A stretch of 64,000 nucleotides of DNA from Minisyncoccota bacterium (GTDB lineage: Bacteria; Patescibacteriota; Minisyncoccia; Phycocordibacterales; JACRKE01). Under the pieces are notes generated by a model. The model did not search any database. It saw only the letters and a program-made list of their open reading frames with translations, and was not told the DNA's origin. Position 1 is the stretch's first letter; every line of letters begins with the position of its first letter. Made by a program: the position numbers and the translations under genes. The DNA is taken from NCBI GenBank assembly GCA_041660505.1, contig JBAZWG010000001.1, positions 23,758 through 87,757 on the forward strand. The letters are read 5' to 3'. Below are positions 27,373 to 62,374 of the stretch, piece after piece.

Positions 27373-27380
27373 AATAGTAG

Positions 27381-27941: not shown

Positions 27942-27959
27942 AATTCGATTCTATCAACT

Positions 27960-27993
27960 ACATCATCCCTCTGCTATAGCAACGAAGTGATGT
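27960..27993. promoter_or_regulatory. Composite palindrome copy 2, extended by outer tatcaac/gttgata arms (27952-28001)
   Basis: ACATCATccctcTGCTATAGCAacgaagTGATGT immediately upstream of the PaaX-like start. Candidate operator. Confidence 0.4.
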
Positions 27994-28027
27994 ATGTTGA
28001 TAACTGGAGAAACGGGGGCGGGGCGGG

Positions 28028-42561: not shown

Positions 42562-42628
42562 ATTCGATAAGTTGAAGTTCGCAACGAATTGTGTTAGTTA
42601 TGTACACGGAAGTGCTGAAAGGAGTTCT

Positions 42629-42997
42629 ATGAAAATAAAGGTTCTTGGTTATGGGCCTGCGGACCTGCTTGAGCAAATCTTAAAGCAGGAATGGTCACCG
42701 TGTAATGATGGTGGTCAAAATTTCACGTCCATCACTGTCAAGAGCGGAGAGCTCAAGGCCTGCTTCTCAGTGCCTCGAGGCAAGGAGGAATTCATTCACA
42801 CTGCTCTGTTCTTGGTACGCGTGGGACGCAAGAGAGGCGTGTCCGTTCGTAACGCATTCGTCACGCTTACATTCTTCGACTTGCTGTGCAAGAGCGGGAG
42901 AAGGGCTCTCTTGCTCAATGGCAACCGCCTAGTGGAGAGACCTTCTGGGAAGAAACCTGTGCGCTACTGCGCCACCTTTACCTTCGAAAACACGTAG
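42629..42997 (+). CDS. Hypothetical protein (122 aa), GC-rich orphan
   Basis: SD aaaggag 5 nt upstream of the ATG. Overlaps the ddl 3' end in another frame. Followed by terminator-like element A. Confidence 0.5.
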   Translation: MKIKVLGYGPADLLEQILKQEWSPCNDGGQNFTSITVKSGELKACFSVPRGKEEFIHTALFLVRVGRKRGVSVRNAFVTLTFFDLLCKSGRRALLLNGNRLVERPSGKKPVRYCATFTFENT

Positions 42998-43005
42998 CTC
43001 CTGCC

Positions 43006-43058
43006 AAGCTGCCGGAAAGTTGCTGTAACCGCACTTCCCGGCAGCTTTTCGTTTTATA
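43006..43058 (+). terminator. Terminator-like conserved element, copy A (diverged)
   Basis: aagctgccgg...ccggcagctt 10-bp stem plus ttcgtttt. Loop sequence related to the 53-bp elements at 48666 and 49397. Confidence 0.6.
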
Positions 43059-43085
43059 AGCTAGCACACAAGACTACCTTGTGTG

Positions 43086-43769
43086 CTACCAGCCAAGTTT
43101 ATCGAGGGCGCTTCGCGCGGCGTCTTGCTCCGCTTCTTGTTTGGACGGGCCTTTGCCTTTTGTAATCAGATCCGGGCCAAGGAAGACGCCTACGGTAAAG
43201 ACTTTGTCATGGTCGGGACCTTCTTCGCCCACCACTTCGTAGCGCGGGGTGACACTGCGTTTTTCTTGTGACACTTCTTGCAGAGCACTCTTTGCGTCAC
43301 GCCACAACTTCTTTTTTACTATCTCATCGGTTTTTGGAATTAAAGTACGGGCGATAAAGTCCTTGGCTACAGCATAACCTTGATCAAGATATATAGCGCC
43401 AATGATTGCCTCATAGGCGTTGGCCAATATCGACTGGCGTGCGCGTCCGGTATCTTTGGCTTCACCCTTAGACATTAGCAAGAACTTCTGAACGTCGAGC
43501 GATGACGAAATCTGAGAAATACTCACTGTATTCACCAACGCCGCTCTATATGCTGTGAGCTCGCCCTCCCACACTTTGGGGTATTTGTGATAGAGATATT
43601 CCGTCACCACTAATTCTAAAACTGCATCGCCAAGAAATTCAAGCCGTTCATTGTGCGAAAGCTGGAAGCTGGGATTCTCATTTAAATATGACCGATGCGT
43701 CAAAGCCTGCTGGATATATTCTCTATTTTGGAACTGTACGCCGATGGTCTTTTCGAATTTTTCTAGCAT
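43086..43769 (-). CDS. rnc: Ribonuclease III
   Basis: ERLEFLGDAVLELVVTEYLY signature. C-terminal dsRBD. Confidence 0.95.
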   Translation of the reverse strand: MLEKFEKTIGVQFQNREYIQQALTHRSYLNENPSFQLSHNERLEFLGDAVLELVVTEYLYHKYPKVWEGELTAYRAALVNTVSISQISSSLDVQKFLLMSKGEAKDTGRARQSILANAYEAIIGAIYLDQGYAVAKDFIARTLIPKTDEIVKKKLWRDAKSALQEVSQEKRSVTPRYEVVGEEGPDHDKVFTVGVFLGPDLITKGKGPSKQEAEQDAARSALDKLGW

Positions 43770-43837
43770 AAAATTATTTTGTCTTAGAAGGCGAGGCCTT
43801 GAGCATCTAGAAGGCCTCGCCTTCTAATTCCTAGTCA

Positions 43838-44758
43838 TTATTTCGCGACAAGTGTTATGGCTTTAGTAATTATTGGTATTAAATCGTCATAAATTTTAAG
43901 GTGTACGACTTCATGCACCTCAAACCATCTTGCATCGTCAAGGCCGGTGGAATTGTGGATTAACTCATCGCGCAAAGGCGCCTTGAGCAAGAAATATACT
44001 ACTTGTCGGCGCACCTTCCCTGAGTGCTCGTCATTCGCTATGTATTCGTTGTGCCCTAAGTCGGCCTCAACCACCGTGTGTAAACCCAACTCTTCTTCTA
44101 TCTTTCTCACGACAGCGTCTTTGTCATTCTCTCCCGAATCGATATGACCTTTCGACAGCGTCCAGAATCCGAAAATATCATGCACGAGAGCTAAATAAAT
44201 TTCTCCATCTTCTACTGTATATACAACTCCTCCCGCTATTTTCTCTACGTTCATTTTTTCGAGATCGGCAGGAGAATAATCTTGGATTTTATTGCGTGAT
44301 TTTTTCTCCTTCTTCTTCGGCTTCTCGTTCTTGCCCGGCTCGCCCATCTCTTTATATACCGTGCCGAGCACGCCGTTCACAAATCTGCCAGACGATTCCC
44401 CGCCGAACGTCTTCGCCAGTTCTATCGATTCATTAATGGCAACTTTGGCTGGCACCTCGCCCTTCTCCGAAAATAAAAGCTCGTATAAGCCGATACGCAG
44501 GATGTTGCGATCAACCATCGAGATTTTATCCAATGGCCATTCCGGCGCGGCCTTCACAATAAGCTGGTCAAGCGCACTGCGTTTACTGGCAACGCCTTGT
44601 GCGAGAACGTCAACAAATTCCCTGTCGGTCAGACCGGGTCCGAATTCTTCTATATTTTTCTCGAGGATATGCGGGAGGTTAGCCAAGGGCTGACTGCGGA
44701 AGTCGAGCTCAAAGAGTGATTGTAAAACGATACTTCTTGAAAGGTGCCTATTGGCCAT
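43838..44758 (-). CDS. NusB-domain / NUDIX hydrolase fusion protein
   Basis: N-terminal NusB helices (RHLSRSIVLQSLFELDFRS...DRNILRIGLYELLF). Lys-rich linker. C-terminal Nudix box GHIDSGENDKDAVVRKIEEELGL. Confidence 0.8.
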   Translation of the reverse strand: MANRHLSRSIVLQSLFELDFRSQPLANLPHILEKNIEEFGPGLTDREFVDVLAQGVASKRSALDQLIVKAAPEWPLDKISMVDRNILRIGLYELLFSEKGEVPAKVAINESIELAKTFGGESSGRFVNGVLGTVYKEMGEPGKNEKPKKKEKKSRNKIQDYSPADLEKMNVEKIAGGVVYTVEDGEIYLALVHDIFGFWTLSKGHIDSGENDKDAVVRKIEEELGLHTVVEADLGHNEYIANDEHSGKVRRQVVYFLLKAPLRDELIHNSTGLDDARWFEVHEVVHLKIYDDLIPIITKAITLVAK

Positions 44759-44806
44759 GTCGAAATTTATTGTACCCCAGAATTCAAAAAGGTTCAAGCA
44801 AAACAA

Positions 44807-44842
44807 GAGGTTCGACCTTTTAGATGCTCAAGGTCGAACCTC
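44807..44842 (-). terminator. Palindromic terminator family gaggttcgacctt / aaggtcgaacctc (copy 1), downstream of rpmF
   Basis: 13-bp perfect stem with A-run on the plus strand upstream (U-run for the minus transcript). Near-identical copy at 60067-60102. Confidence 0.65.
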
Positions 44843-44860
44843 TAAACGTGAGTGGAAAAA

Positions 44861-45082
44861 CTATGACTGCTTTGCCGCGTCTGCTTTTCTCTTCTTTTTG
44901 TCTTCAGCCTTCTTGGTCTTCTTCATGACATCGATGATTTCACGGCCATTATAACTGCCGCAGGTCATGCAGAGCGTGTGTGAGCGGACAGGAGCTTTGC
45001 ACTTAGGGCAAACGCTCTTAGGCGTCTCGGTCAGCGCGTGATGGGATCGTCTATTGTCGCGGTGTGCCCGCGTATGTCGCAT
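44861..45082 (-). CDS. rpmF: 50S ribosomal protein L32
   Basis: MRHTRAHRDNRRSHHAL...CPKC...CMTCGSY zinc ribbon typical of bL32. Confidence 0.85.
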   Translation of the reverse strand: MRHTRAHRDNRRSHHALTETPKSVCPKCKAPVRSHTLCMTCGSYNGREIIDVMKKTKKAEDKKKRKADAAKQS

Positions 45083-45178
45083 GTGTACTACCATTTCAGT
45101 ATTATTTATTGTTTATTTCTTGTTGGGCAAATAATACCCTATTTTAACCAAAAACGCAAATTTTCTTTATTCATAATA

Positions 45179-48100
45179 ATGAGCTACACTGCATACACCA
45201 TGCGACCCTTCGTTCACCTCCACACACACTCTCACTATTCCCTGCTCGATGGGTTATCAAAAACAGAGGAACTCATTAGGCTCGCGAAGCAGTATGAGAT
45301 GCCGGCATTGGCGGTGACTGACCACGGCAACATGTACGGCGCCATCGAGTTCTATCAATATTGCAAAAAAAAAGATATCAAACCTATCTTCGGCTTCGAG
45401 GCTTACGTTGCCAATCGTACAAGATTCGACAAACAACCGGGTATCGATAATAAAAGATATCACCTCACACTGCTTGCAGAAAATTTCACCGGTTACAAGA
45501 ATCTGATGAAGCTCGTCACCAAGTCTTCGCTCGAAGGCTATTATTACAAGCCTCGCGTTGACAAAGAATTGCTAAAAGAATGTGCTGAAGGACTAATTTG
45601 TTTGTCCGGTTGCCTTGGTAGCGAGCTAGGGCGAGCAGTCCAATCCGGCGACGAAGCGGAAGCTTATCGCGTCATAGACGAGTATCAAAATATCTTCGGT
45701 AAAGATAATTATTATCTCGAGATAATGGCGCACGACAGTATTGCCGATGTAAAAACGATGCGCGAGTTTATCATAAGAGCATCGAAGAAGACGGGTATCC
45801 CGCTTGTCGCTACGCAAGACTCTCATTACCTACACAAAGACGACAAACACGCGCACGAGACATTACTCGCCATCAACACCGACGGCACGACGACCGACGC
45901 CAACCGCTACAGCTTCGGCGAAATGGACGGCTCCTTTATTAACGGCGATGAAGCCTATGAACTTTTTAAGGACACACCGGAGGCCTGCGATAATACTTTA
46001 AAAATAGCGGAGCGTTGCAACGTTGAGCTGACTCTGGGTAAATTTATCTTCCCCAACTTCCCTCTCCCTGAAGGGAAAAGTGCCGACGACTTCTTGCGCG
46101 AGAAAACATTCGCCGGTATCGAGCGCCGCGGGCTTACTGGTAAACCGGAAGTAGTCGAGCGCTTGGAGTATGAGCTTGGGATAATTAAGATGAAAGGTTA
46201 TGCCGCCTATTTCCACGTCGTGGAGGACCTGATACGATTCGCCACCGAACGTAATATCTACAGCAACATTCGTGGTTCGGTTGCAGGTTCGATGACTACA
46301 TATTTACTCGGCATTACGAAGATCGACCCGCTGGTTTATAAAATCCCGTTCGAACGATTCCTTAATCCTGAACGTCCGTCGGCGCCAGATATTGATATGG
46401 ACTTCGCCGATAATCGGCGCGAAGAAGTGCTTGAATATACTAAAGAAAAGTATGGGCATGACTATGTGGCGCAAGTAGGCACGTTCGGCACGATGCTCGC
46501 GCGAGGCTCTGTACGTGATGTGGCACGGGCACTCGGTCATCCATATATATTGGGCGACAGCATTTCCAAGCTCATCCCGCTTGGCTCTCAAGGCTTCCCT
46601 ATGACTATTGAACACGCCTTCGAGGTAGAGCCGGAGCTCCAGAAAATGTACGACGCTGATCCGAAAGTAAAAGATATTATAGATATCGCGAAGAAGCTAG
46701 AGGGGTGCGTGCGCCACGTCTCGGTGCATGCGGCCGGTGTCGTCATCGCGCCCAATCCGCTCATCGAGTACGCCCCGCTCCAGCTTGACCCCAAGGGTGG
46801 TAAAATTATTACGCAGTACGATATGTATACCGTGGGTGAAGATGGCGTTGGACTGACGAAATTTGACTTTTTGGGAATCAGAAATCTCTCAATTCTTGCC
46901 GACGCCGTTCGCATAGTAAAAGCCGTACGCAACGAAGACATAGATATAGAAGCAATACCCTTGGATGATAAGAAAACATTTCAGATGCTCGCGCGCGGAG
47001 AGACGATGGGGCTCTTCCAACTGAACGGCCAAGGCATGACTAAATTCTTGAAAGATTTGAAGGCGACCAGCATTCACGACATCAACGCCATGGTGGCTCT
47101 CTATCGCCCGGGCCCGATCCAATTCATTCCGGAATATATTAAGCGCAAGCATAATCCCGAACTTGTCTCATACCTTGACCCGGCGCTTGAGAAAATCCTG
47201 AAGCAGACGTACGGCATCTTGGTCTATCAAGACGACCTCTTGATGATGGCGCACGATCTCGCTGGTTACAGCTGGGGTGAGGTTGATAAATTCCGCAAGG
47301 CTGTCGGCAAGAAGATCCCGGCAGAGATGGAAGCGCAAAAAGAGAAGTTTATAAAGGGTTGTGTTGCTGTGTCTAAATGGCCGCAGAAGAAGGCGGAGGA
47401 AATTTGGGCGTGGATAGAGCCCTTTGCCGCGTATGGCTTTAACAAGGCTCACAGCGCTTCGTATGGCCGAGTAGCCTATCAGACATCATATATGAAGGCC
47501 AACTTCCCTGCCGAATATATGACCGCGGTACTCACGGCGGAGTCGGGCGATGTGGACGAAGTGGCTGCCGTCATCGATGAATGCAAGCGGATGAAGATAC
47601 CGGTCTTGCCACCGTCTATTAACGAGAGTCTCGGCGACTTCGCTGTCGTCAAGAAAGCATCCGGTGATGAAATCAGGTTCGGATTATACACGATAAAAAA
47701 TCTGGGTACCGAAATTGCGAACTCTATTATAGAGAACAGAACGGAGCATGGGTTTTTTAAGTCTCTTGCCGATTTCTTCGACCGCGTGAGACACAAAAAT
47801 TTGAATAAGAAGTCGCTCGAGGCGCTTATTAAGTCCGGTGCCATGGACGAGCTTGGTGAGCGCGGGGCTATGATCTTTAATCTCGACGACGCTCTGCAAT
47901 ATAATAAAGAAGCGGCAAGTACGGCACACCAGTCGTCCTTATTCGGTCTGTTGGATGAACCGCATGTGGCCGCGGCACTGACGCTTAAGCTTGCGCCACC
48001 GGCGACGCTTATGGAGAAGCTAGCGTGGGAGAAGGAATTATTAGGCCTCTATATCTCCGGCCATCCGTTAGAAAAACATCGCGAAAAATTTGAGAAGTCC

Positions 48101-48388
48101 GGAATTACAATCACAAGCATAAAGGCGCAGACCGACGGCGCGGTCGTGGCCTTCGGCGGGCTCATAGAAGAGCTCAAGGCGATATTTACAAAGAAGGGCG
48201 ACCACATGGCGTTCATGAAAGTGTCGGACTTTACCAACCAAATCGAGGTTGTCGTCTTCCCCAAAGTGCTTGAAGAATTCAAAGCAATAGCCATACCCGA
48301 AAAATGTGTGGCCATCCGTGGCCGCCTCTCATTCCGCAACGGTGAACCGAGCATAATTGCGAGCGCGTTCAAGAGCCTTGACGAATAA
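45179..48388 (+). CDS. dnaE: DNA polymerase III alpha subunit
   Basis: PHP domain FVHLHTHSHYSLLDG. Palm/fingers motifs. About 1070 aa from the ATG at 45179. Confidence 0.95.
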   Translation: MSYTAYTMRPFVHLHTHSHYSLLDGLSKTEELIRLAKQYEMPALAVTDHGNMYGAIEFYQYCKKKDIKPIFGFEAYVANRTRFDKQPGIDNKRYHLTLLAENFTGYKNLMKLVTKSSLEGYYYKPRVDKELLKECAEGLICLSGCLGSELGRAVQSGDEAEAYRVIDEYQNIFGKDNYYLEIMAHDSIADVKTMREFIIRASKKTGIPLVATQDSHYLHKDDKHAHETLLAINTDGTTTDANRYSFGEMDGSFINGDEAYELFKDTPEACDNTLKIAERCNVELTLGKFIFPNFPLPEGKSADDFLREKTFAGIERRGLTGKPEVVERLEYELGIIKMKGYAAYFHVVEDLIRFATERNIYSNIRGSVAGSMTTYLLGITKIDPLVYKIPFERFLNPERPSAPDIDMDFADNRREEVLEYTKEKYGHDYVAQVGTFGTMLARGSVRDVARALGHPYILGDSISKLIPLGSQGFPMTIEHAFEVEPELQKMYDADPKVKDIIDIAKKLEGCVRHVSVHAAGVVIAPNPLIEYAPLQLDPKGGKIITQYDMYTVGEDGVGLTKFDFLGIRNLSILADAVRIVKAVRNEDIDIEAIPLDDKKTFQMLARGETMGLFQLNGQGMTKFLKDLKATSIHDINAMVALYRPGPIQFIPEYIKRKHNPELVSYLDPALEKILKQTYGILVYQDDLLMMAHDLAGYSWGEVDKFRKAVGKKIPAEMEAQKEKFIKGCVAVSKWPQKKAEEIWAWIEPFAAYGFNKAHSASYGRVAYQTSYMKANFPAEYMTAVLTAESGDVDEVAAVIDECKRMKIPVLPPSINESLGDFAVVKKASGDEIRFGLYTIKNLGTEIANSIIENRTEHGFFKSLADFFDRVRHKNLNKKSLEALIKSGAMDELGERGAMIFNLDDALQYNKEAASTAHQSSLFGLLDEPHVAAALTLKLAPPATLMEKLAWEKELLGLYISGHPLEKHREKFEKSGITITSIKAQTDGAVVAFGGLIEELKAIFTKKGDHMAFMKVSDFTNQIEVVVFPKVLEEFKAIAIPEKCVAIRGRLSFRNGEPSIIASAFKSLDE

Positions 48389-48435
48389 TAAATACTATTG
48401 TAGCTTGTCGAAAGAAGCGGGAAGAGTGAGTTGTC

Positions 48436-48654
48436 ATGGCAAATCTATTCGGAGCCGTGTCGATGATTCTACTGGGAATTTCCGGTTTCGCTGCTGGAGT
48501 TTCGGTCATGGACCATGCTGGTGGTGCTGAATTTATCAACGCAATCAGCAGCCGTGCATGGTTCTGGGAGGTGATAACGCTAACGTTTTTCATCATGGGC
48601 GCGTTCCTGCATGTAATCGCCCTCAACGAGATGTTGAAACCTCGTGGGCGATAG
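48436..48654 (+). CDS. Small membrane protein (hypothetical, 72 aa)
   Basis: Two TM segments. Immediately followed by the 53-bp terminator-like element B. Confidence 0.4.
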   Translation: MANLFGAVSMILLGISGFAAGVSVMDHAGGAEFINAISSRAWFWEVITLTFFIMGAFLHVIALNEMLKPRGR

Positions 48655-48665
48655 CTCTTTTCATA

Positions 48666-48718
48666 GCTGCCGGAGGAAGTTGTCTTAACACCGCTTCCAA
48701 GGGCAGCTTTCTTCGTTT
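48666..48718 (+). terminator. 53-bp terminator-like element B (identical to C)
   Basis: agctgccggaggaagttgtcttaacaccgcttccaagggcagctttcttcgtt. Nested stems agctgcc/ggcagct and ggaag/cttcc, then a U-rich tail. Confidence 0.65.
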
Positions 48719-48726
48719 ATATTAAT

Positions 48727-48757
48727 ACTTAGAGAGCTGAACTCTCTAAAATAGGGG
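48727..48757. repeat. REP-like palindrome family 1, copy 4 (agagagctgaactctct, one mismatch)
   Basis: Same element and trailing aaaatagg context as the copies at 7.6-8.7 kb, 40 kb away. Confidence 0.8.
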
Positions 48758-48849
48758 TTTTTGCAGATTGCATTTGCTTGATGCGCAAGTTGTGTGTCTT
48801 GAAATCTTTTCCACTTCCTAAACCTTCAGTTCAGAGCTAAAATAACTGA

Positions 48850-49119
48850 ATGAAAACCGAGGACCTGGCAGTCATGATAAAAAAGCAATTCGACGTTATG
48901 GGTATGCAACTCAGAAATATTGATTATGGGATAGAAAAACTTGAGGTCAAGAACGACAACCTCGAGAACCAATTGACACAGGTTCGAGCCGATCTAACGA
49001 AAGTAAAACAGGATGTTGAGTTCATCCGTGAAAACAATGTGTTTAAAATCGAACACGAGGACTTACGGTCGCGCGTAGGAAAGATTGAATCGAAACTCAA
49101 GCTTCGTTTGAAGGTTTAG
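48850..49119 (+). CDS. Small coiled-coil protein, paralog of 23666..23932
   Basis: 89 aa, heptad-rich. Shared KVKQDVEFIRENN / HEDLRSRVGKIESK blocks. Confidence 0.5.
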   Translation: MKTEDLAVMIKKQFDVMGMQLRNIDYGIEKLEVKNDNLENQLTQVRADLTKVKQDVEFIRENNVFKIEHEDLRSRVGKIESKLKLRLKV

Positions 49120-49224
49120 CTCGCTGAATCTCCCACCCCAAAAAGTTTAGGGACTATTTCAGCTTGACGAATAACATATTTTATATTAATTTCATTGTTA
49201 ATGATGTAGGGATAGGAGGTGAAC

Positions 49225-49380
49225 ATGATCTGTGTAGTGAAGGTGAATTATCCCAAATGCAAGAAGTGTGGCTGTGATACAGAGCGCACCGGAGGATGGC
49301 GAGGCGATGTTGGTCTCGATTACCTTCGATGTACAAAGTGCGGCCACAAACAAACTAGCCGGGTTTATACCTGGCGATGA
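49225..49380 (+). CDS. Zinc-ribbon mini-protein (51 aa), unannotated
   Basis: MICVVKVNYPKCKKCGCDTERTGGWRGDVGLDYLRCTKCGHKQTSRVYTWR with CxxC...CxxC. SD ggaggt upstream. Followed by element C. Confidence 0.35.
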   Translation: MICVVKVNYPKCKKCGCDTERTGGWRGDVGLDYLRCTKCGHKQTSRVYTWR

Positions 49381-49396
49381 CCGTGTTGCAGCACCA

Positions 49397-49449
49397 AGCT
49401 GCCGGAGGAAGTTGTCTTAACACCGCTTCCAAGGGCAGCTTTCTTCGTT
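49397..49449 (+). terminator. 53-bp terminator-like element C (identical to B)
   Basis: Exact 53-bp repeat of 48666-48718. Confidence 0.65.
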
Positions 49450-49471
49450 AGACCTTATTATTAGCCAAGTT

Positions 49472-49490
49472 ATCAACACCGAGTGTTGAT
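49472..49490. repeat. Palindrome family 2 (atcaacac-cga-gtgttgat), 5' copy
   Basis: 8-bp perfect arms with a 3-nt loop, about 22 bp upstream of the second transposase ATG. Confidence 0.8.
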
Positions 49491-49512
49491 ATTTCGTGAT
49501 ATACTCTCAAGT

Positions 49513-50193
49513 ATGAGAGTTATTGAAATTTGCGAGGATGAGTACTACCATGTTTTGAATCGAGGAATTAATAAGCAAAAAATCTTTCTTGATGATCGAG
49601 ACCGTGCTCGGTTTTTATTTCTTATCTTGTTTTTGCAGTCTCCTGCCCTGGTAAATAATATGAGTGATTTCGCCGCGAGATTTACAGATCTTATTCTTGC
49701 TGATGAATACAACATACTTGCGGTGAAAGAACTAGATGAACTTTGGAATAAAATGAAGGAGTCGAGGTGTGTGGAGCTCCTGGCGTTTGCACTTATGGGG
49801 AACCACTTTCATATCGCCGTTCATGCACTCAAGGATTCAGGAATAGCAACCTATTTGCAACGAGTGCAGAACGCGTATACAAAATACTTTAATATAAAAC
49901 ACGATCGGACGGGACATTTATTCCAGGGACCATACAAAGTCGTACACCAACCAGACGACGAACGTCTCATGATGCTTACTGCGTATATCCACCATAACCC
50001 GAATGAGGTTTTAGATAGTAGAGCTGAAGTTGAAGCATTCAAATGGTCTAGCTACCAGGATTACCACAACAATAATCGCTGGGGCGAGTTATTAAAGCCA
50101 GAAATAGTACTCGAACAATTTTCCAATCCCGCGGAATACCTAGAATTCGTTAACGATGGCAACGTAAAATCAACACCGAGTGTTGATAAATAG
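49513..50193 (+). CDS. IS200-like / REP-associated tyrosine transposase (Y1 HUH), copy 2
   Basis: YYHVLNRG ... GNHFHIAVH (HuH) ... GPYKVVHQPDDERLMMLTAYIHHNP (Tyr region). Diverged from copy 1. Confidence 0.85.
   Translation: MRVIEICEDEYYHVLNRGINKQKIFLDDRDRARFLFLILFLQSPALVNNMSDFAARFTDLILADEYNILAVKELDELWNKMKESRCVELLAFALMGNHFHIAVHALKDSGIATYLQRVQNAYTKYFNIKHDRTGHLFQGPYKVVHQPDDERLMMLTAYIHHNPNEVLDSRAEVEAFKWSSYQDYHNNNRWGELLKPEIVLEQFSNPAEYLEFVNDGNVKSTPSVDK
50169..50187. repeat. Palindrome family 2, 3' copy (inside the last codons of the transposase)
   Basis: Identical atcaacaccgagtgttgat. Confidence 0.8.
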
Positions 50194-50277
50194 AGCTTGC
50201 AAAGGGCTATGTCGGTGCTAGACTTTATACAGCCCTGCTCTTTTCGAACGATGAGAGCATGATTGTAGGAGGTCAGC

Positions 50278-50550
50278 TTGAGCCAGATGTTCGAATATCA
50301 CGAGGTCATCGAGACTCTTGCCCGACAAAGCCGGAAGATCTCGAAAGAAATTCCGTTGGAGGACCAACGGGCTGTGCTCTCGGCAATTTCTAGGTTCGAG
50401 ACCGTTCATGGCCGTGGTGCAGTGCTCGACGTTATCTGTGCCGCATCGCGAGCCGGCAAGTTGCACGAATGCCTGAAAGCGCTCGACGCAGTGACAGACT
50501 CACCCTCGTTGCTAAACGATGTTTGTCGGCAACTGGGACTCGTTCGATGA
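50278..50550 (+). CDS. Hypothetical protein (90 aa), GC-rich orphan; TTG start
   Basis: SD gtaggaggt 9 nt upstream. High GC relative to flanks. Confidence 0.4.
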   Translation: MSQMFEYHEVIETLARQSRKISKEIPLEDQRAVLSAISRFETVHGRGAVLDVICAASRAGKLHECLKALDAVTDSPSLLNDVCRQLGLVR

Positions 50551-50692
50551 TTATCTTGGCAGGTTAAGGGGGAGCCTGTCGAAAGTACAAATCCCCCAAC
50601 CCACAAAGAACGCGTCCATGTGACGTGTTTTTTGTTTCTATTTGTCTATATATAGATATCTGCTATTATGGTGTGACACTAATTTAAATACT

Positions 50693-52438
50693 ATGGAACC
50701 AGAAAAATTGCAGAACATTCGCCATACGCTTGCTCACCTTATGGCACAGGCTGTTAAGGAGCTCTATCCGAACGCACAACTTACGCTTGGCCCGGCTATT
50801 GATACGGGGTTTTATTATGACATTGACTTTGGTGCCGACAAATTATCGGACGCTGATCTACCGAAAATAGAGAAACTGATGCGCAAGAACCTCCAGAATT
50901 GGAAAGAATTCACTCATCAAGAAGTAGACGAGGCGGGTGCAGAAAAAGCTTTTGCCGGTAATCAGTACAAACTTGAACTGGTTAAAGAAATTTCTGAACG
51001 CGGGGAGAAGATCACCCTATACACCTGCGGTAATTTTACAGACCTTTGCCGTGGCGGACACGCAGAAAATCCGTCCAAGGATATTGCACCGGACTCGTTC
51101 AAACTCGATCGTATTGCCGGGGCCTATTGGCGCGGAAGCGAGAAGAACCCTATGCTCACCAGAATCTACGGTCTGGCCTTCGAGTCAAAACCAGCGCTAG
51201 ACATGCATCTCACAATGCTCGAAGAGGCCAAAAAACGCGACCATCGTAAACTCGGCAAAGAACTGGAACTGTTTATGATCGCCGACGAAGTCGGTCCAGG
51301 TTTACCGATGTTCTACCCGAAAGGCGCAATTTTACGCCGACTTATCGAGAACTACATTATTGAAGAACAAGAGGCAAGGGGCTACGTTCCCATCTGGATT
51401 CCACATATTACAAAGGGCAAGCTCTATGAAATTTCCGGCCATTTGTCGAAATACGATGCGATGTACAATCCAATGCACATTGACGACGACGACTATTACC
51501 TTAAGCCGATGAATTGCCCGCACTTCATGATGCTCTATAAGTCACTCCCGCATTCATACAAAGAACTCCCATTACGATACACTTGTACTACTACAAATTA
51601 CCGCTATGAGAAGTCCGGCGAGCTCTCTGGCCTCACGCGCGTGCGAGCCCTCACACAAGACGACTGTCATGTGTTCTGTATGCCGGACCAGATTGAGAAT
51701 GAAATTAAGCTGATGCTCGAGATGATCGGCAACGCATATCATGTCTTCAAAATTACCGACTTCTGGGTGCGCATTTCACTTAGAGATTCTAAGGATAAAT
51801 CAAAGTACCTTGGCGACGACGATGTTTGGAATAAAGCGGAAGACGCCTTACGCAAGGTAGTGAAGGCATCCGGCTGGAAATATAAAGAAGCGGAGAATGA
51901 AGCGGCCTTCTATGGTCCCAAGCTTGACTTCATGATGAAGGATGCTATCGGCCGTGAGTGGCAAATCTCCACAATCCAACTCGACTTCAACCTGCCTAAG
52001 CGTTTCGAGCTGGAATATACCTCTAACACTGGCACAAAAGAACAACCCGTGGTGATTCACAGAGCAATCCTTGGCTCTACAGAGCGTTTTATGGGAGTAC
52101 TCATAGAGCACCTAGCCGGTAACTTCCCCACTTGGCTCTCGCCGATACAGGTTGCCATATTGCCAATCTCCGATAAGCATTTGGAATATTCAAAAAAGGT
52201 CGCCGAGAGCCTCCGAGCTTCTGGTGTCCGTGTGGAGCTTAATGAAGATAACGATACTTTGGGCAAGAAGATACGCAATGCGAAAGGTACAAAAGTGCCT
52301 TACATGCTAGTCATCGGCGATGCGGAGGTTAACGACAAAACTATTACGGTAGAGCATCGTGACAAAGGTAAGGTCGGCGCACAATCCGTCGCCGAATTCA
52401 TTGCGAATATTACTGACGAAATTAAAAATCGTAATTAA
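50693..52438 (+). CDS. thrS: Threonyl-tRNA synthetase (lacks N-terminal TGS domain)
   Basis: Editing-domain start IRHTLAHLMAQAV...GFYYDIDFG. Class II motifs. Anticodon-binding C-terminus. Confidence 0.95.
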   Translation: MEPEKLQNIRHTLAHLMAQAVKELYPNAQLTLGPAIDTGFYYDIDFGADKLSDADLPKIEKLMRKNLQNWKEFTHQEVDEAGAEKAFAGNQYKLELVKEISERGEKITLYTCGNFTDLCRGGHAENPSKDIAPDSFKLDRIAGAYWRGSEKNPMLTRIYGLAFESKPALDMHLTMLEEAKKRDHRKLGKELELFMIADEVGPGLPMFYPKGAILRRLIENYIIEEQEARGYVPIWIPHITKGKLYEISGHLSKYDAMYNPMHIDDDDYYLKPMNCPHFMMLYKSLPHSYKELPLRYTCTTTNYRYEKSGELSGLTRVRALTQDDCHVFCMPDQIENEIKLMLEMIGNAYHVFKITDFWVRISLRDSKDKSKYLGDDDVWNKAEDALRKVVKASGWKYKEAENEAAFYGPKLDFMMKDAIGREWQISTIQLDFNLPKRFELEYTSNTGTKEQPVVIHRAILGSTERFMGVLIEHLAGNFPTWLSPIQVAILPISDKHLEYSKKVAESLRASGVRVELNEDNDTLGKKIRNAKGTKVPYMLVIGDAEVNDKTITVEHRDKGKVGAQSVAEFIANITDEIKNRN

Positions 52439-52443
52439 AAAAC

Positions 52444-52905
52444 ATGAACTCAATGACAAAGTGGATATTAGGGCTAGTTGTCGTTGTTGCAGTAGCACTT
52501 CTCGTTATGAAGGATAACGAGAAGACTGTATACGCGCCGGATGACACTTCAGCTATCCAGAGTGGAGTAAACGAACCGACAAGTATTAACAAAGAACCTG
52601 TCGTCCAGAATGCTCCGTCATATACTTCGATTGTTAAAATAAAAGAGGTAACAGGTCCGGCATCAGTAGCCACAGGTTTACAGACTAATTGGGTGATCAG
52701 TGCAGAAGCACCGGGTACAGAGACAACAACATACACGGCAAACTGGGCAGACGGCTCGCCCAAAGAGTCTCAAACGAGCAGTAATGTGTTTACCCATATC
52801 TACACCAAGCCAGGTCTGTACGTAATTACCTTCACGGCAAAGAGTACAAACAGCAAGCTCGTTCAGACGCTAAAGACGGTAAACGTCGTATCGGCCAACA
52901 AGTAA
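52444..52905 (+). CDS. TM-anchored protein with PKD-like domain
   Basis: YTANWADGSP...FTHIYTKPGLYVITFTAKS matches the PKD consensus (WDFGDGS...HxYxxxGxYxV). Confidence 0.6.
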   Translation: MNSMTKWILGLVVVVAVALLVMKDNEKTVYAPDDTSAIQSGVNEPTSINKEPVVQNAPSYTSIVKIKEVTGPASVATGLQTNWVISAEAPGTETTTYTANWADGSPKESQTSSNVFTHIYTKPGLYVITFTAKSTNSKLVQTLKTVNVVSANK

Positions 52906-52908
52906 CGT

Positions 52909-54576
52909 ATGCAGAGTCCGGAACTTGCCAAACAGATCAAGACTTTCCTTGAGGGCGATGTTGAGTTTGACGACAAGACTCTAGATACTTATAGCAAGGA
53001 TACGAGCCTATTTTCTGTACGTCCGCAGATTGTTGTCTTCCCCAAACATTCCAAAGATGTTTCTGCTCTAGTAGCTTTCGTGCTCGAACAAAACGCTAGA
53101 GGCGAGAAGCTTACTCTTACCGCGCGCTCCGGCGGGACGGATATGTCCGGCGGACCGCTTACGGAATCTATTGTGGTAATATTCGGACGTTATATGAACC
53201 AACTCATTTCACTTGGCGCCCTGGGTGCCAAGTGTGCTGTTGTAGAGCCGGGTATGTTCTACCGCGACTTCGAGACCGAGACGTTGAAGAACAATTTACT
53301 CCTCCCTTCCTATCCGGCCTCACGAGAGATCTGCATGATGGGCGGTGTCGTCAACAACAATTCCGGCGGAGAGAAGACCCTGCGCTACGGCAAAACCGCA
53401 CGATATGTGTCTAAAATGAATATGATTCTCTCTGATGGAAACGAGTATGAGATAAAGAAACTTACAGAACATGAACTCTTCCTCAAGATGGTACAAGAAA
53501 ACTTCGAAGGCAGGTTTTATAAACAGCTCTACGATTTAGTAAAGAATAATTACGATTTATTGCAGGCTCGCAAACCGCAGGTATCGAAAAATTCTTCCGG
53601 CTACGCACTCTGGGACGTGTATGATCCGCAAGCCAAAACCTTCGACCTCACCCAGCTCTTCGTCGGCGCACAAGGCACGCTCGGCCTTATGACCAAGGCC
53701 GAGATCCAGCTTATCCACCCCAAACCTTATAAACGTATGCTTGTTATATTTATGAAGAGCACCGATATATTGGGCGACTTGGTGCAAGATGTGCTCAAGT
53801 TCTCGCCAGAGAGCTTCGAGTCATACGACGACAACACGATGAAGGTGGCTATCAAATTCTTCCCCGCCCTGCTCAAACGCTTGAAGGGCAGTCTGGGCTC
53901 GCTTATCATGAGCTTCTTGCCCGAAGTGGGCATGGTGCTGACAGGAGGCTTCCCCAAGCTCGTCCTGCTTGCCGAATTTACGGCCGACAGTGTTGAAGAG
54001 GCATTAGCGCAAGCAGAAAAGTGCCGAGCTGCAATCAAAGAAAAGTACAATCTAAAGATGCGCGTGACGCAAAGTGATATAGAAACAGAAGAGTATTGGG
54101 TCGTGCGCCGAGAGAGCTTTAACCTCTTGCGCAATAACGTCCACGGCATGCACACGGCGCCGTTTATCGACGACGTTGTGGTTAATCCGCAATATTTGCC
54201 GGAGTTCTTGCCTAAGCTGAATAAAATCTTCGAGCCGTACAAGATTATCTATACCGTGGCCGGGCACGTGGGTGATGGCAACTTCCACATCATCCCGCTA
54301 ATGGACTTGACCGATCCACATACCAAGGAAATAATAAAGGAGCTGGGGCCAAAAGTGTATGATCTGGTAATCTCCTATAACGGCTCAATAACAGGCGAAC
54401 ATAATGATGGCATTGTCCGCACGCCGTATATAGAGAAGGAATTCGGCAGTGAAGTTTATAAACTTTTTGTCCAAACAAAGAAAATTTTAGACCCGCTTAA
54501 TATCTTTAACCCCGGTAAAAAAGTCGGCGGCACAATAGCTTACGAAGAAGCGCATTTGCTTACGAAGAATAATTAA
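52909..54576 (+). CDS. FAD-linked oxidase (GlcD / D-lactate dehydrogenase family)
   Basis: FAD-binding PCMH-type N-terminus (RSGGTDMSGGPL). C-terminal FAD-oxidase_C. Confidence 0.85.
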   Translation: MQSPELAKQIKTFLEGDVEFDDKTLDTYSKDTSLFSVRPQIVVFPKHSKDVSALVAFVLEQNARGEKLTLTARSGGTDMSGGPLTESIVVIFGRYMNQLISLGALGAKCAVVEPGMFYRDFETETLKNNLLLPSYPASREICMMGGVVNNNSGGEKTLRYGKTARYVSKMNMILSDGNEYEIKKLTEHELFLKMVQENFEGRFYKQLYDLVKNNYDLLQARKPQVSKNSSGYALWDVYDPQAKTFDLTQLFVGAQGTLGLMTKAEIQLIHPKPYKRMLVIFMKSTDILGDLVQDVLKFSPESFESYDDNTMKVAIKFFPALLKRLKGSLGSLIMSFLPEVGMVLTGGFPKLVLLAEFTADSVEEALAQAEKCRAAIKEKYNLKMRVTQSDIETEEYWVVRRESFNLLRNNVHGMHTAPFIDDVVVNPQYLPEFLPKLNKIFEPYKIIYTVAGHVGDGNFHIIPLMDLTDPHTKEIIKELGPKVYDLVISYNGSITGEHNDGIVRTPYIEKEFGSEVYKLFVQTKKILDPLNIFNPGKKVGGTIAYEEAHLLTKNN

Positions 54577-54597
54577 GAGATTTATACATAAACACTG

Positions 54598-54622
54598 AGA
54601 CCCACCGGGTCCCAGTGGGTCT
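54598..54622. terminator. Hairpin between convergent genes
   Basis: agacccac-cgggtccca-gtgggtct. Confidence 0.45.
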
Positions 54623-54646
54623 TATCCTCGAGTCTAGCAGGCGGTC

Positions 54647-55045
54647 TTACGCCGAGAACACGGCGAGGCCGATGGCCAGGCGCAACTGCTCGAACAGAAC
54701 CGAAACGTCGTCCTGATTGATTCCTTCGGAAAACGTCCGAAGGTAAACGTAGTCCGACTCCATGCCCACGTACATTTCTCCTCGGTAGTTCGGTGGTGTC
54801 GTGACCTCGGTTGGCATTTTCGAGAGCTTGTGCTCTTGAGTTTCCGCCTCCGCTTGCTCCAGCGCGCCCGAGAAGTCGGCGAGCGTAGTGGCTACGCGTG
54901 TCCCACCGATGATGATGTCGAGGTTAGGGTTCTCGGCATCGCGTGAGTTATGGTACGCGTAGACAATCACAGATTGATTGTTTGCGTGTCTTGCAGGTAT
55001 GACAAACCTGCGGGCTTGGGCGTACTTCAGCTTTGCCTTGGCCAT
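54647..55045 (-). CDS. Hypothetical protein (132 aa), GC-rich orphan
   Basis: Strong SD gaggagg 6 nt upstream of the ATG. GC well above flanks. Confidence 0.5.
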   Translation of the reverse strand: MAKAKLKYAQARRFVIPARHANNQSVIVYAYHNSRDAENPNLDIIIGGTRVATTLADFSGALEQAEAETQEHKLSKMPTEVTTPPNYRGEMYVGMESDYVYLRTFSEGINQDDVSVLFEQLRLAIGLAVFSA

Positions 55046-55171
55046 GCTTGTTCCTCCTCTAGTCCACGTTCGGACAAGAATTTTCTGCCTGTTTCCGTTA
55101 CCGCAATAAGGCTATCACTATTAAAACTTTTCCGCAATTTATTCTCTCTTCAATGTTTATGGCCGTCTAGT

Positions 55172-55444
55172 TTAGACAATACTTACATGAAGCTTGCCAC
55201 CCACAGCATGTGCGATTTCATTCAGATAGGAAAGTGTCGGGTTTTCTGAACCGGATTCGAGACGCGCGATTGCTGACTGATGCGTACCCAAACGAGAGGC
55301 CAATTCGGCCTGAGTAAGCTTCTTTTGAATACGCTTTCTGATAATTGCCTCTATTAATTCAAATTGAGGGCCCAATGCATCGTAGGCTTTTTTTACTTCT
55401 TTATTTCGAAGCGTCTTTTTCTTAAATTGTGCGAAAGTATTCAT
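55172..55444 (-). CDS. XRE-family HTH antitoxin (HigA-like)
   Basis: LTQAELASRLGTHQSAIARLESG Cro/C1-type HTH. Immediately downstream of the toxin gene. Confidence 0.7.
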   Translation of the reverse strand: MNTFAQFKKKTLRNKEVKKAYDALGPQFELIEAIIRKRIQKKLTQAELASRLGTHQSAIARLESGSENPTLSYLNEIAHAVGGKLHVSIV

Positions 55445-55454
55445 AACCTATATG

Positions 55455-55763
55455 TTATATCAGTCTCCTTAAATTTGCAAGTGCCTTATAGAGTTCGCGT
55501 TTTGGCAACTTCCGACCTTTCTTTGTATACACATGCAGTATCCAAGCTCTACCCTTATGGAATGTGTAAAACAACCTGAGATTTTTCTTCCCAAAAATTC
55601 TGAGTTCGAACAGTCCGTTAAGTATTGGCTTGCTATGAGGCATTCCCAACAAATGACCGAAGGTTTCTAGAAGCGTCAGTGTTCTATCAACTTTAGCAAT
55701 AGTATCGGGATCTAACGCCTCAATATACCGATTAATATATCGATCAAGAAATTGAATATCCAT
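55455..55763 (-). CDS. RelE/ParE-superfamily toxin, Gp49/HigB-like
   Basis: LFELRIFGKKNLRLFYTFHKGRAWILHVYTKKGRKLPKRE matches the Gp49-like HigB family. Toxin-first gene order. Confidence 0.7.
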   Translation of the reverse strand: MDIQFLDRYINRYIEALDPDTIAKVDRTLTLLETFGHLLGMPHSKPILNGLFELRIFGKKNLRLFYTFHKGRAWILHVYTKKGRKLPKRELYKALANLRRLI

Positions 55764-58220: not shown

Positions 58221-58387
58221 ACAATATATAGTTAAATAAATAAAGTCTTAAAATTTCTTTAAGCTCCAATATTGAGTATACACCCGTCGCTTGTATTGTC
58301 TAGTTTATAAATAACTATTTACAGATTACCAATCGTATGTTATTATGACAAGCAGATGGCGGATGTGTTCCGTCGAAAGGAAGGTGG

Positions 58388-58816
58388 ATGATGGTCGACA
58401 ACGACCGTCAGGCAGCATTAGAGGAGATGGAAGCCGCGCTTCAGGAGAAGCGCGTGCTGTACACACTCGGAGACTCGGAAGGCAAGGTCCTCGAGTCGAT
58501 TCGAGAGCGGCACGAGGTCCACTGCTGGTTGGGCCGTGAGCCGTTCAGCTCGACCGAGACCTGTGAGTCACTCACGAGAAGCAACACGCCCGAGGCCGAG
58601 TTCCGTGTTCACGACATCATGGTCGCGAAGGACCGTCTGGGTGTGGAGCTCCTCATCGCCGAGGGATCGATCAGAGTTACGGGTTACACCGAGGGCAAGA
58701 ACATCCTCGGAAACATGACCGGATTCAGGTCGGTCAGGGCCCGGCTCTACATCCCCCGGGGGGCGCCTGTCCCCACCCCTGCATTTTTTGTTCTTGGGGA
58801 GCTCGTGCACGAGTAG
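58388..58816 (+). CDS. Hypothetical protein (142 aa) in a ~60% GC island
   Basis: SD ggaaggtgg upstream. Followed by a strong terminator. Composition sharply different from the genome. Confidence 0.5.
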   Translation: MMVDNDRQAALEEMEAALQEKRVLYTLGDSEGKVLESIRERHEVHCWLGREPFSSTETCESLTRSNTPEAEFRVHDIMVAKDRLGVELLIAEGSIRVTGYTEGKNILGNMTGFRSVRARLYIPRGAPVPTPAFFVLGELVHE

Positions 58817-58833
58817 CACAGCTCTCCCTACTG

Positions 58834-58871
58834 CCCCGGTCCGCATTGTGCGACCGGGGCTGGTTTTTTTA
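58834..58871 (+). terminator. Strong intrinsic terminator
   Basis: ccccggtc-cgcattgtgc-gaccgggg followed by ctggttttttt. Confidence 0.8.
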
Positions 58872-59954: not shown

Positions 59955-60066
59955 AGGTTACAACATATTAACACGTTTCAATCTTTTAGACATCCGGTGT
60001 TGCTAAAATTGAGCCTGTAAAGAGTATGGGATGGAATATACTTGCCATGTTTTTGTAAACAAAAAA

Positions 60067-60102
60067 GAGGTTCGACCTTTTGGATGCCTAAGGTCGAACC
60101 TC
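60067..60102 (-). terminator. Palindromic terminator family gaggttcgacctt (copy 2), downstream of the DUF5679 gene
   Basis: Same 13-bp stem as 44807-44842. A-run on the plus-strand 5' side. Confidence 0.65.
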
Positions 60103-60131
60103 TGGATTCTGTCTACTAAGTAACAGCTCTG

Positions 60132-61826: not shown

Positions 61827-62009
61827 ATAGTTCATGTTATTTTCATTCATTATACTCCACAACCATTCACTATCCTATTAACCCCTCTACAACCTTTCCG
61901 ACTTGACATATTAACGATAACATTTTTGTATCACCAAATGGACGGGCACGTCATTTTATTGTAGAGTGAATGTGATTTTTGTAGGCTCAACACCGAAAGG
62001 AGGTTCAAT

Positions 62010-62309: not shown

Positions 62310-62374
62310 TCACACGACGAGGTGACCACGGCAACGGGGCAGGCCGGTAATTCTGCCCCTAACTACAAAAAACA

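Follow-up and report, generated by a model that had tools for sequence, protein, structure and literature searches.

Six small genes in a housekeeping region of a Paceibacterota contig

The window analyzed here, a stretch of 64,000 nucleotides (positions 23,758 to 87,757 of the forward strand of contig JBAZWG010000001.1), is part of a 719,008-bp metagenome-assembled genome (MAG) contig annotated as Candidatus Paceibacterota bacterium and has a GC content of 0.479. Its large open reading frames (ORFs) are compact housekeeping genes, including rpoB, rpoC, dnaE, smc, thrS, and rnr as well as genes for an AcrB-type pump and a P-type ATPase. Six small ORFs, called units A to F below, lie between these genes. 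A preliminary description had singled them out as GC-rich orphans, each with a strong Shine-Dalgarno (SD) sequence and a private terminator, and had proposed that they are cassette-like single genes with a possibly shared origin. They are called as genes by PGAP and IMG, and units A–E carry locus tags WC764_00350 to 00460. When 185,579 species genomes and the JGI metagenomes were searched, the nearest threonyl-tRNA synthetase (ThrRS) was only 72% identical to that of the window, and the top matches all came from Patescibacteria/Parcubacteria MAGs. Over B, C, and D and their junctions, the window agrees at 100% identity with independently assembled Logan contigs (9.4 kb and 1.8 kb), which excludes a chimeric assembly for these units; the Logan loci L081 and L082, being 100% identical to the window, confirm the assembly and yield no population contrast. 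Our comparison set comprised 160 related loci (2.28 Mb in total), none of which contains rRNA, and 68 related loci were used for the unit scan described below.

Each unit comprises an SD, an ORF, and a terminator; in the motifs given here, the number before the start codon is the spacer in nucleotides, and energies refer to the anti-SD duplex. Unit A (42614–43046, plus strand) has its SD at 42618–42624 (AAAGGAG-4-ATG, −8.2 kcal/mol), an ORF of 122 amino acids (aa) at 42629–42997 with a GC content of 0.515, and a hairpin with a T-run at 43007–43046. Unit B (50264–50635, plus strand) has its SD at 50267–50272 (AGGAGG-5-TTG, −11.4 kcal/mol), a 90-aa ORF with a TTG start at 50278–50550 (GC 0.546), and a terminator at 50603–50635. 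Unit C lies on the minus strand (54592–55062), with the SD at 55053–55059 (GAGGAGG-7-ATG, −12.0 kcal/mol), a 132-aa ORF at 54647–55045 (GC 0.559; GC content at third codon positions, GC3, 0.70), and a hairpin at 54592–54622. Unit D (58318–58865, plus strand) carries the SD AAGGAAGG at 58377–58384 (AAGGAAGGTGG-ATG, −7.2 kcal/mol), a 142-aa ORF at 58388–58816 (GC 0.606, GC3 0.78), and a terminator at 58830–58865; it also has an internal GTG at 58454 preceded by AGGAG with a spacer of 6 nt (−12.3 kcal/mol). Unit E (61993–62401, plus strand) has its SD at 61998–62003 (AGGAGG-6-TTG, −12.8 kcal/mol), a 99-aa ORF at 62010–62309 (GC 0.577), and hairpins at 62336–62356 and 62368–62401, and its protein combines an acidic N-terminus with a CxxC..CxxC zinc ribbon. 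Unit F (3792–4444, plus strand) has its SD at 3906–3911 (AGGAGG-7-ATG, −10.2 kcal/mol), an ORF at 3919–4389 (GC 0.569), and a terminator at 4415–4444. All six ORFs are present where the preliminary description had placed them, except that the start of F is revised: its SD serves the ATG at 3919 and not the TTG at 3841, so the protein is 156 aa long (140 aa in IMG) rather than 182 aa.

Expression signals of the units and of resident genes

For every ORF in a non-overlapping set we computed the energy of the anti-SD duplex upstream and a hairpin/T-run score downstream. The SD energies of all six units lie between −7.2 and −12.8 kcal/mol, with spacers of 4–7 nt, whereas the other 64 ORFs have a median of −0.5 kcal/mol and only 3% of them reach −7, compared with 3.8% of random 17-mers from the window. 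This contrast (Mann-Whitney p = 3e-5) persists when resident genes are given the best start within their first 40 codons (p = 7e-5). A hairpin with a T-run lies 9–52 nt past the stop codon in 6/6 units, with energies of −14.3 to −23.7 kcal/mol, and a terminator of −12 kcal/mol or lower follows 6/6 units versus 14% of the other ORFs (p = 2e-4). The hairpins of A and D are distinct from the hairpin that serves the convergent neighbor. The strong SDs and private terminators noted in the preliminary description are thus present on each of the six, and the pattern is stronger than first stated.

In many resident genes that stand first in an operon, a −10 hexamer, often TG-extended, precedes the ATG by about 6 nt, as in TATAAT-6-ATG at 3096 and TACAAT-6-ATG at 39129 (examples of such sites are 3097–3110, 9317–9330, 39130–39145, and 22744–22760). 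A −10 hexamer ending 4–9 nt before the start, most commonly at 6 nt, is found for 11/64 resident ORFs versus 3.1% of all ATG triplets (p = 4.5e-6); this position implies leaderless mRNAs for many residents. Operon-internal residents have A-rich upstream sequence and no SD. None of the six units has a −10 box of the leaderless type. Instead, D and F have sigma-70-like promoter-like sites with an extended −10 located 41 and 49 nt upstream of the start, respectively (D, TTTACA-17-TG-TATTAT at 58318–58346; F, TTGACG-17-TG-TATTAT at about 3841–3869; both on the plus strand), while no clear match to a promoter consensus was found upstream of A, B, C, or E. Together, these contrasts in SD, −10 position, and termination set the six apart as a leadered, SD-bearing, singly terminated minority. 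The low SD use of the residents fits a report that found the anti-SD motif in just 48% of the 16S rRNAs of Parcubacteria (PMC9297842).

Base composition and codon usage

The ORFs of the units have GC contents of 0.515–0.606, compared with 0.41–0.47 in their 150-nt flanks. To score third positions, we calculated a z-score for GC3 that takes as given the protein sequence and the codon preferences of 33 long resident genes. By this measure D (5.5), C (4.0), E (3.6), and F (3.2) are the top small genes, while A (1.6) and B (1.2) are no outliers; A is the weakest member of the set, with an odd protein composition in addition to its low z-score. The earlier claim that the units are GC-richer than their neighbors therefore holds for C, D, E, and F and is not statistically distinctive for A and B. 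Codon-position GC in B–F (GC1 0.59–0.63, GC2 0.39–0.43, GC3 0.59–0.78) follows the pattern of real coding sequence, in the same frame as the SD. In C–F, GC1 exceeds GC2 and GC3 is 0.68–0.78, resembling a replicon of 55–60% GC.

Compared with both core genes and highly expressed genes, the six differ in the direction of codon choice and not merely in its degree. In the pooled six, TAC makes up 0.76 of Tyr codons (core 0.39, highly expressed 0.31) and GAC 0.82 of Asp codons (core 0.49), CCG accounts for only 0.23 of Pro codons (core 0.51), and use of the rare Arg codons AGG, CGG, and CGA is elevated. Relative synonymous codon usage (RSCU) of the six correlates at 0.29 with the long genes of the window and at 0.63–0.68 with Patescibacteria loci of 60–65% GC, a likeness that is compatible with GC-rich donors and not specific to them.

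Search for homologs

All-vs-all BLASTP of the six proteins gave a best E of 0.12 and hence no pairwise similarity. None of the six has a match in Pfam, PHROGs, PADLOC, NCBIfam, or PDB, in agreement with the preliminary statement that they lack recognizable domains; the lowest E in the PDB sequence searches was 0.006, to a designed repeat protein. D and F retrieved only themselves from a search of 5.8 billion proteins. An HMMER scan of 1.84 billion representatives with C returned C itself and one 3500-aa repeat protein, a match that we judged spurious since its E of 1e-16 sums 15 weak stretches, with 35% identity over 45 residues. The 90%-identity clusters of all six contain the source genome only. 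Ten small proteins of the window compared with the 160 related loci at E ≤ 0.05 yielded nothing but one 20-residue match, these loci hold no ortholog of any of the six, and scans of viral contigs also gave nothing for any of them. At the Rfam gathering threshold the window yields only three tRNAs and no match for the six; a reading as structured non-coding RNAs was rejected on this result and on the coding pattern of codon-position GC. AlphaFold2 run without an alignment gave predicted local distance difference test (pLDDT) scores of 37 for D and 32 for F, so the models are unusable, and such low scores are expected when no alignment is available.

Genomic placement

The order smc(−), rnc(−), nusB(−), L32(−), dnaE(+), thrS(+) is conserved in relatives, and the junctions inside the operon are always tight there (17–312 bp for rnc|nusB and 55–245 bp for nusB|L32). 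The two junctions at which A and B lie behave differently: both are tight in many relatives and filled by other, unrelated small ORFs in some. The smc|rnc gap is 1–2076 bp in relatives and at most 139 bp in 13/23 of them, whereas in the window it measures 1680 bp and holds ddl and A. The dnaE|thrS gap is 1–4753 bp in relatives and at most 74 bp in 14/51, compared with 2253 bp in the window, where it contains, all on the same strand, a 72-aa membrane ORF, an 89-aa coiled-coil ORF, a 51-aa zinc ribbon, a Y1 transposase gene (49513–50193), and B directly after the latter. The comparison of adjacency covers A and B; the regions of C–F have no synteny with the relatives.

Units C, D, and E lie in the stretch from thrS to tRNA-Gln (52.4–62.7 kb), which is a mosaic in GC content and whose genes are almost wholly missing from the related loci, with at most 1–2 weak matches each. 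Their neighbors there include a HigB/HigA-like pair, an ABC-F gene, a guanylate cyclase, TspO, and a GIY-YIG gene. C adjoins the HigB/HigA-like pair, and E lies between a Gmad2-domain gene and the GIY-YIG gene/tRNA-Gln. The pair itself (55172–55763, minus strand; a Gp49/RelE-type protein of 102 aa and an HTH_3 protein of 90 aa, GC 0.38–0.42) forms an SD-less operon separate from C. The six units were also considered as toxin-antitoxin or defense modules, a reading that was rejected as none has a PADLOC or Pfam match and all are solitary.

At unit F, the last 23 nt of tRNA-Val (3670–3692) are duplicated 122 nt downstream (3792–3814), right before the promoter-like site; no such pair (0) is expected by chance. 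This duplicate of a tRNA 3' end is a candidate for a classic integration scar resembling an attachment (att) site. The repeat pair does not enclose F, which lies outside it, and no integrase is present. We found no sign of phage residence: the neighbors of the units are chromosomal (ddl, rnc, dnaE, thrS, an FAD oxidase, ABC-F), and there is no PHROG structural or replication match. A prophage reading was rejected on these grounds and on the lack of viral-contig matches.

Similar units in related loci

The architecture recurs in relatives. Even if the most favorable of 16 starts is taken, an SD precedes only 0–38% (mostly <15%) of the large genes in the 68 related loci. We scanned these loci together with the window for GGAGG or AGGAG followed by 4–10 nt, a start codon, an ORF of 50–260 aa, and a terminator of −12 kcal/mol or lower, and found 82 such units versus 6 in the same sequences reversed; 63/82 are singletons by BLASTP. 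In all loci of at least 8 kb from the 160-locus set, an SD leads 7% of ORFs of 50–100 aa, 12% of those of 100–260 aa, 5% of those of 260–500 aa, and 2% of those >500 aa, with about 2% in the reversed control; the difference between ORFs of 100–260 aa (12%) and of at least 260 aa (3%) is significant (p = 2e-12). Only 9/74 units in relatives match Pfam (Tmk five times, NUDIX twice, TK, and YkuD), compared with at least 44/74 SD-less ORFs of 100–260 aa from the same loci (p = 2e-9). GC content is higher in small ORFs with an SD than in those lacking one (p = 3e-5, or 3e-4 without the window), with a mean excess of just 0.02–0.04. Many units of relatives occupy the same two junctions as A and B, for example smc|rnc in L007 (2049–2714), L009 (3210–3869), and L027 (2450–2950), and dnaE|thrS in L008 (1442–1732), L023 (9381–9899), and L051 (9474–9848). 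Junction inserts in relatives are not GC-rich as such (mean −0.02), indicating that GC-richness is a trait of SD-led ORFs and not of every insert.

One pair of relatives allows a unit to be followed across a species split. L007 and L009, whose DNA is about 90% identical, share an SD-led gene of 220 aa between smc and rnc with a GC content of 0.55 in genomes of 0.39. It has a promoter-like site (TTGACA-17-TGcTTTAAT), a leader of about 50 nt, the start TAAGGAGG-6-ATG, and the hairpin terminator GGGGCCCCGC. Its rate of synonymous substitution (dS) is 0.53, within the range of the flanking core genes (0.37–0.66), the ratio of nonsynonymous to synonymous rates (dN/dS) is 0.13, and GC3 is 0.61 and 0.63 in the two loci versus 0.27–0.39 in core genes. 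The SD, leader, and promoter are nearly invariant while the ORF has diverged. Members of the class are therefore real genes under selection that can outlast a species split with their composition kept.

The same two loci differ by five clean indels of 0.4–1.5 kb (4823–5259, 5845–6773, 11741–13298, 16072–16765, and 19114–19951 in L007), each covering one or two genes and delimited by gene ends. One is a 929-bp segment with a GC-rich, SD-led orphan of 188 aa that is present in L007 only; the other four are AT-rich and SD-less. This indicates that flux of single genes is common in the clade and that SD-led, GC-rich genes are one of at least two kinds involved.

Further units, repeats, and mobile elements

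We listed all ORFs of at least 50 aa in the window that have an AGGAGG, GGAGG, or AGGAG 3–11 nt upstream of a start codon. Such motifs stand at true 5' ends of ORFs in the candidates, at 49225–49380 and 3217–3384, at TspO, and at the ORF starting at 26912; the remainder lie inside long genes. TspO/MBR (60418–60852, minus strand; GGAGG-9-ATG, GC3 0.63) has a good SD and no terminator, and the 112-aa ORF at 26912–27250, downstream of rnr (GGAGG-7-GTG), has neither a Pfam match nor a terminator.

Two to four more ORFs of the window are built like the six and are probably real genes, apart from one that is possibly spurious. An additional unit at 49209–49449 (plus strand) consists of AGGAGG with a 5-nt spacer, the 51-aa zinc ribbon ORF (49225–49380), and a 53-nt hairpin (49397–49449), and a probable one at 48436–48717 (plus strand) comprises the 72-aa ORF with two hydrophobic helices (48436–48654), a weak SD (−7.0 kcal/mol), and a copy of the same 53-nt hairpin at 48665–48717. 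Another probable unit encodes 73 aa on the minus strand at 28090–28311. The possibly spurious case spans 3203–3474 (plus strand), with GGAGG, a 55-aa ORF at 3217–3384, and a terminator at 3437–3474; at this position gene callers prefer an antisense ORF of 96 aa (3157–3447).

No flanking motif common to the six was found, and shared pieces are limited to two families of terminator hairpins. The first, AGCTGCCGG..GGCAGCT with a T-run, has three copies, at 43007–43046 (the terminator of A, AGCTGCC..GGCAGCT), 48665–48717 (72-aa ORF), and 49397–49449 (51-aa ORF), and probably corresponds to what the preliminary description called element A. The latter two copies are identical at 53/53 positions, are 732 bp apart, and form direct repeats around a two-gene segment of 679 bp. 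The second is a stem, ACAAAG.AC..GACGTGTTTTTTGT, common to the terminators of B and of the ORF at 3217, a weak link for which 0.04 such 14-mer pairs are expected. The terminators of C, D, E, and F are unique. Inverted repeats of 12–13 nt bracket C (54587–54598/55150–55161) and E (61972–61984/62363–62375), but they occur at about chance frequency and are unlike each other.

The window contains two Y1 transposase genes. The first, IS200-like and AT-rich, lies at 8038–8664. The palindrome TAGAGAGTTGAACTCTCTA brackets it with copies at 7626, 7989, and 8678 and recurs once more at a distance of 40 kb, within the dnaE|thrS hot spot (48730–48748), an arrangement in a candidate phyla radiation (CPR) genome that resembles repetitive extragenic palindromes (REPs) and their associated tyrosine transposases (RAYTs). 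The second gene, at 49513–50193, is bracketed by the palindrome ATCAACACCGAGTGTTGATA, present in two exact copies (49472 and 50169). The idea that the units are IS200/IS605 or RAYT/REP cargo was rejected, as 0/6 ORFs lie between Y1 palindromes and B is just outside them. Integron cassettes were rejected too: a Pfam scan of the larger ORFs and of the units' neighbors contained no integrase, the hairpins are T-run terminators that are not conserved between units, and D and F have promoter-like sites of their own.

Origin of the units

We favor, with moderate confidence, the reading that the six units are independently acquired, self-contained, moron-like accessory genes that came from outside the resident expression system. 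Residents lack an SD and many are apparently leaderless, so the signals of the units, and in C–F also the composition, do not match the genome in which they lie. The analysis shows the anatomy of the units, how they contrast with the residents, their orphan status, non-syntenic placement, and recurrence in relatives, and purifying selection on one related example; foreign origin, mode of insertion, actual use of the SD, and any cellular role are inferred. Each unit would be an autonomous expression unit made up of a promoter (visible as a promoter-like site in D and F), a leader of 40–50 nt, a canonical SD, an ORF, and a private intrinsic terminator. The units were most likely acquired horizontally and one by one, and the donors may have been several SD-using, GC-richer, still unsampled sources, such as other Patescibacteria, host bacteria, or mobile elements. 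Permissive landing sites would be the operon boundaries of the smc-rnc-nusB-L32/dnaE-thrS block, and further ones may be the att-like site at tRNA-Val and positions beside the Y1 transposase gene, the HigBA pair, and the GIY-YIG gene. Once inserted, the units could work like phage morons, that is, as insulated single genes expressible wherever they land. The preliminary view of cassette-like single genes that are separately acquired or turned over agrees with the foreign-type signals, the non-core codons of C–F, and the position of A and B in variable junctions; core-like codon usage or syntenic orthologs would have spoken for ordinary resident genes, and we found non-core usage in C–F and no orthologs in 160 loci. 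A single shared origin of the six, in contrast, is not supported: the proteins show no pairwise similarity, GC ranges from 0.52 to 0.61, the terminators are mostly different, and no flanking motif is common to them.

Several results weigh against import from outside. A and B are no significant outliers in GC or codon usage, and the overall codon likelihood of the six is only mildly off (z −0.6 to −2.3), with several AT-rich genes deviating more. Around the units we found neither an integrase nor a target-site duplication nor a common end motif. No donor was found, although ordinary well-sampled bacterial sources should leave homologs among billions of proteins. Missing orthologs are weak evidence for short, fast-evolving proteins when the relatives are as distant as here (ThrRS at most 72% identical), and several non-SD neighbors are just as lineage-specific as the units. 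The gene shared by L007 and L009 is as old as the species split and still has a GC3 of about 0.62, so high GC may be maintained by selection and not reflect recent import. Finally, the SDs show perfect motifs and good spacing, and one has been conserved across species; this suggests that the SD is in use and need not be a relic of a donor.

In the chief rival explanation, the units are native genes for small proteins, specific to the lineage, and constitute a translation class of their own: the ribosome would have kept its anti-SD, most genes would be leaderless or independent of the SD, a minority of stand-alone small genes would use a leader and a strong SD, perhaps along with GC-rich coding, for strong or conditional translation, much like the few SD-led genes (such as rpsU) of SD-poor Bacteroidia, and the orphan appearance would stem from fast evolution. 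We hold this explanation possible but not probable. It accounts for the perfect motifs and optimal spacing, for an L007/L009 gene whose SD, leader, and promoter stayed almost unchanged and whose GC3 was held at about 0.62 while the ORF diverged (dS 0.53, dN/dS 0.13), for tmk being SD-led in five different related genomes, and for the failure to find a donor for C, D, and F. It leaves unexplained why the units sit in junctions that are empty or otherwise filled in relatives, why 63/82 are singletons, and why their codon choices depart from those of highly expressed natives rather than exaggerate them; moreover, operon-internal natives are also SD-less, so a leadered message needs no SD here. 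A farther-reaching explanation, which we consider doubtful as a whole, is that Paceibacteria have two expression regimes, an inherited leaderless or SD-independent core and a circulating pool of autonomous, SD-led, GC-rich mini-genes. These would insert at operon boundaries, possibly by recombination between terminator hairpins, and be kept by purifying selection, with the SD acting both as the marker of a CPR-specific mobile pool and as a switch for privileged or conditional access to ribosomes in a lineage that would otherwise have given up SD-dependent initiation.

We regard it as quite unlikely that one mobile system with a shared origin, whether integron-like, driven by an IS200/IS605-type Y1 transposase, or based on recombination at repeated terminator hairpins, delivered the units. 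The two Y1 genes with their own palindromes, the stray palindrome copy in the dnaE|thrS hot spot, the same-strand array of small ORFs in that gap, the three-copy hairpin family behind A and two small ORFs with its identical pair bracketing 679 bp, and the terminator stem common to B and the 3217 ORF would all fit such a system. However, the proteins are unrelated, the terminators of C, D, E, and F are unique and their flanks share no motif, no integron integrase appears among the ORFs scanned with Pfam, the units have promoter-like sites of their own, only B adjoins a Y1 gene and does so outside its palindromes, and the likeness of hairpins could reflect REP-like dispersal of terminators independent of the ORFs. 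That the six are not genes at all but chance open frames in GC-rich non-coding or RNA-coding segments, where stop codons are fewer, is very unlikely in our view, and spurious ORFs are unlikely except possibly for A and the 3217 ORF. Several frames are open over the same segments, the single-sequence pLDDT of D and F is low, A is odd in composition with a marginal compositional signal, and callers favor the antisense ORF at 3217–3384. Against this stand the coding pattern of B–F in the SD frame, an SD at 4–7 nt together with a terminator past the stop in 6/6 (a combination with 82 occurrences in real sequence and 6 in reversed sequence), the empty Rfam result for the six, the calls by PGAP and IMG, and purifying selection on a related example, while low pLDDT is expected without an alignment.

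Relation to known gene cassettes

In lambdoid phages, Juhala and Hendrix reportedly described in 2000 so-called morons, single genes with their own promoter and terminator that lie between conserved genes. The units resemble these in having one ORF and a terminator each, with a promoter-like site of their own in D, F, and the L007/L009 unit, in lying, for A and B, between genes that are adjacent in relatives, and in having a composition unlike their surroundings and cargo that is unrelated from unit to unit. They differ in residing in a CPR chromosome with no phage genes nearby and no PHROG matches, in being GC-richer than their surroundings, and in an initiation mode that differs from that of the residents (SD versus none or leaderless). 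The dnaE|thrS insert also recalls integron cassettes as a same-strand row of small, unrelated ORFs with an imperfect palindrome behind each, but there is no IntI and no attC core site, and the units are scattered and have promoter-like sites and SDs of their own. SD-poor Bacteroidia likewise keep a few strong-SD genes in a genome that largely ignores the SD, for example rpsU, a conserved core gene with a role in feedback (autoregulation); the SD-led genes here are instead orphans in variable positions.

T4-type phages carry PeSL cassettes: small ORFans of hyperplastic regions have copies of a promoter/stem-loop terminator module on their flanks, and these modules shuffle the ORFans (PMC2839356). 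The identical 53-nt hairpins that bracket a two-gene segment in the window are reminiscent of this arrangement. In contrast to PeSL cassettes, a hairpin family is common to just five of some nine units, we found no repeated promoter module, and the units are chromosomal rather than phage-borne and show no evidence of circles. Compared with bacterial ORFans in general (PMC13012023, PMC12455944), the units are likewise short, lineage-restricted, domainless, atypical in codon usage, and located in variable spots; however, ORFans of E. coli have a lower GC content than the other genes of the species (PMC13012023), whereas that of the units is higher. For Patescibacteria, horizontal transfer of both single genes and islands is on record, as are ORFans (PMC12455944). 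The literature that our searches returned contained no mention of a split in initiation signals between core and orphan genes or of a GC-rich deviation.

If the split holds genome-wide, an SD with a leader would be a marker, readable from sequence only, of accessory or imported small genes in Paceibacteria and other SD-less CPR bacteria, in which homology-based detection of horizontal transfer fails because most such genes are orphans. It also raises the testable question of whether these ribosomes still use the anti-SD, which was reported as absent from about half of Parcubacteria 16S rRNAs (PMC9297842). GC-rich orphans, set beside the low-GC ORFans of E. coli (PMC13012023), bear on the debate over whether such genes are imported or invented. 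For annotation, start-codon and gene calling in MAGs of this kind should not presume a single initiation model.

Other features of the window

A 96-aa ORF at 7670–7960 (GC 0.285, GC3 0.22) is the strongest codon-usage outlier of the window (z = −5.8) and sits between REP-like palindromes beside the first Y1 transposase gene. A 186-aa protein encoded at 27381–27941 on the minus strand has a PaaX-type central Cas2-like domain, and its gene is framed by a 37-nt inverted repeat at 27337–27373 and 27959–27995. Finally, a 38-nt palindrome with a perfect stem, AGAGGTTCGACCTT..AAGGTCGAACCTCT, occurs in two copies, at 44806–44843 between nusB and L32 and at 60066–60103 near a DUF5679 gene, and has the appearance of a dispersed bidirectional terminator.

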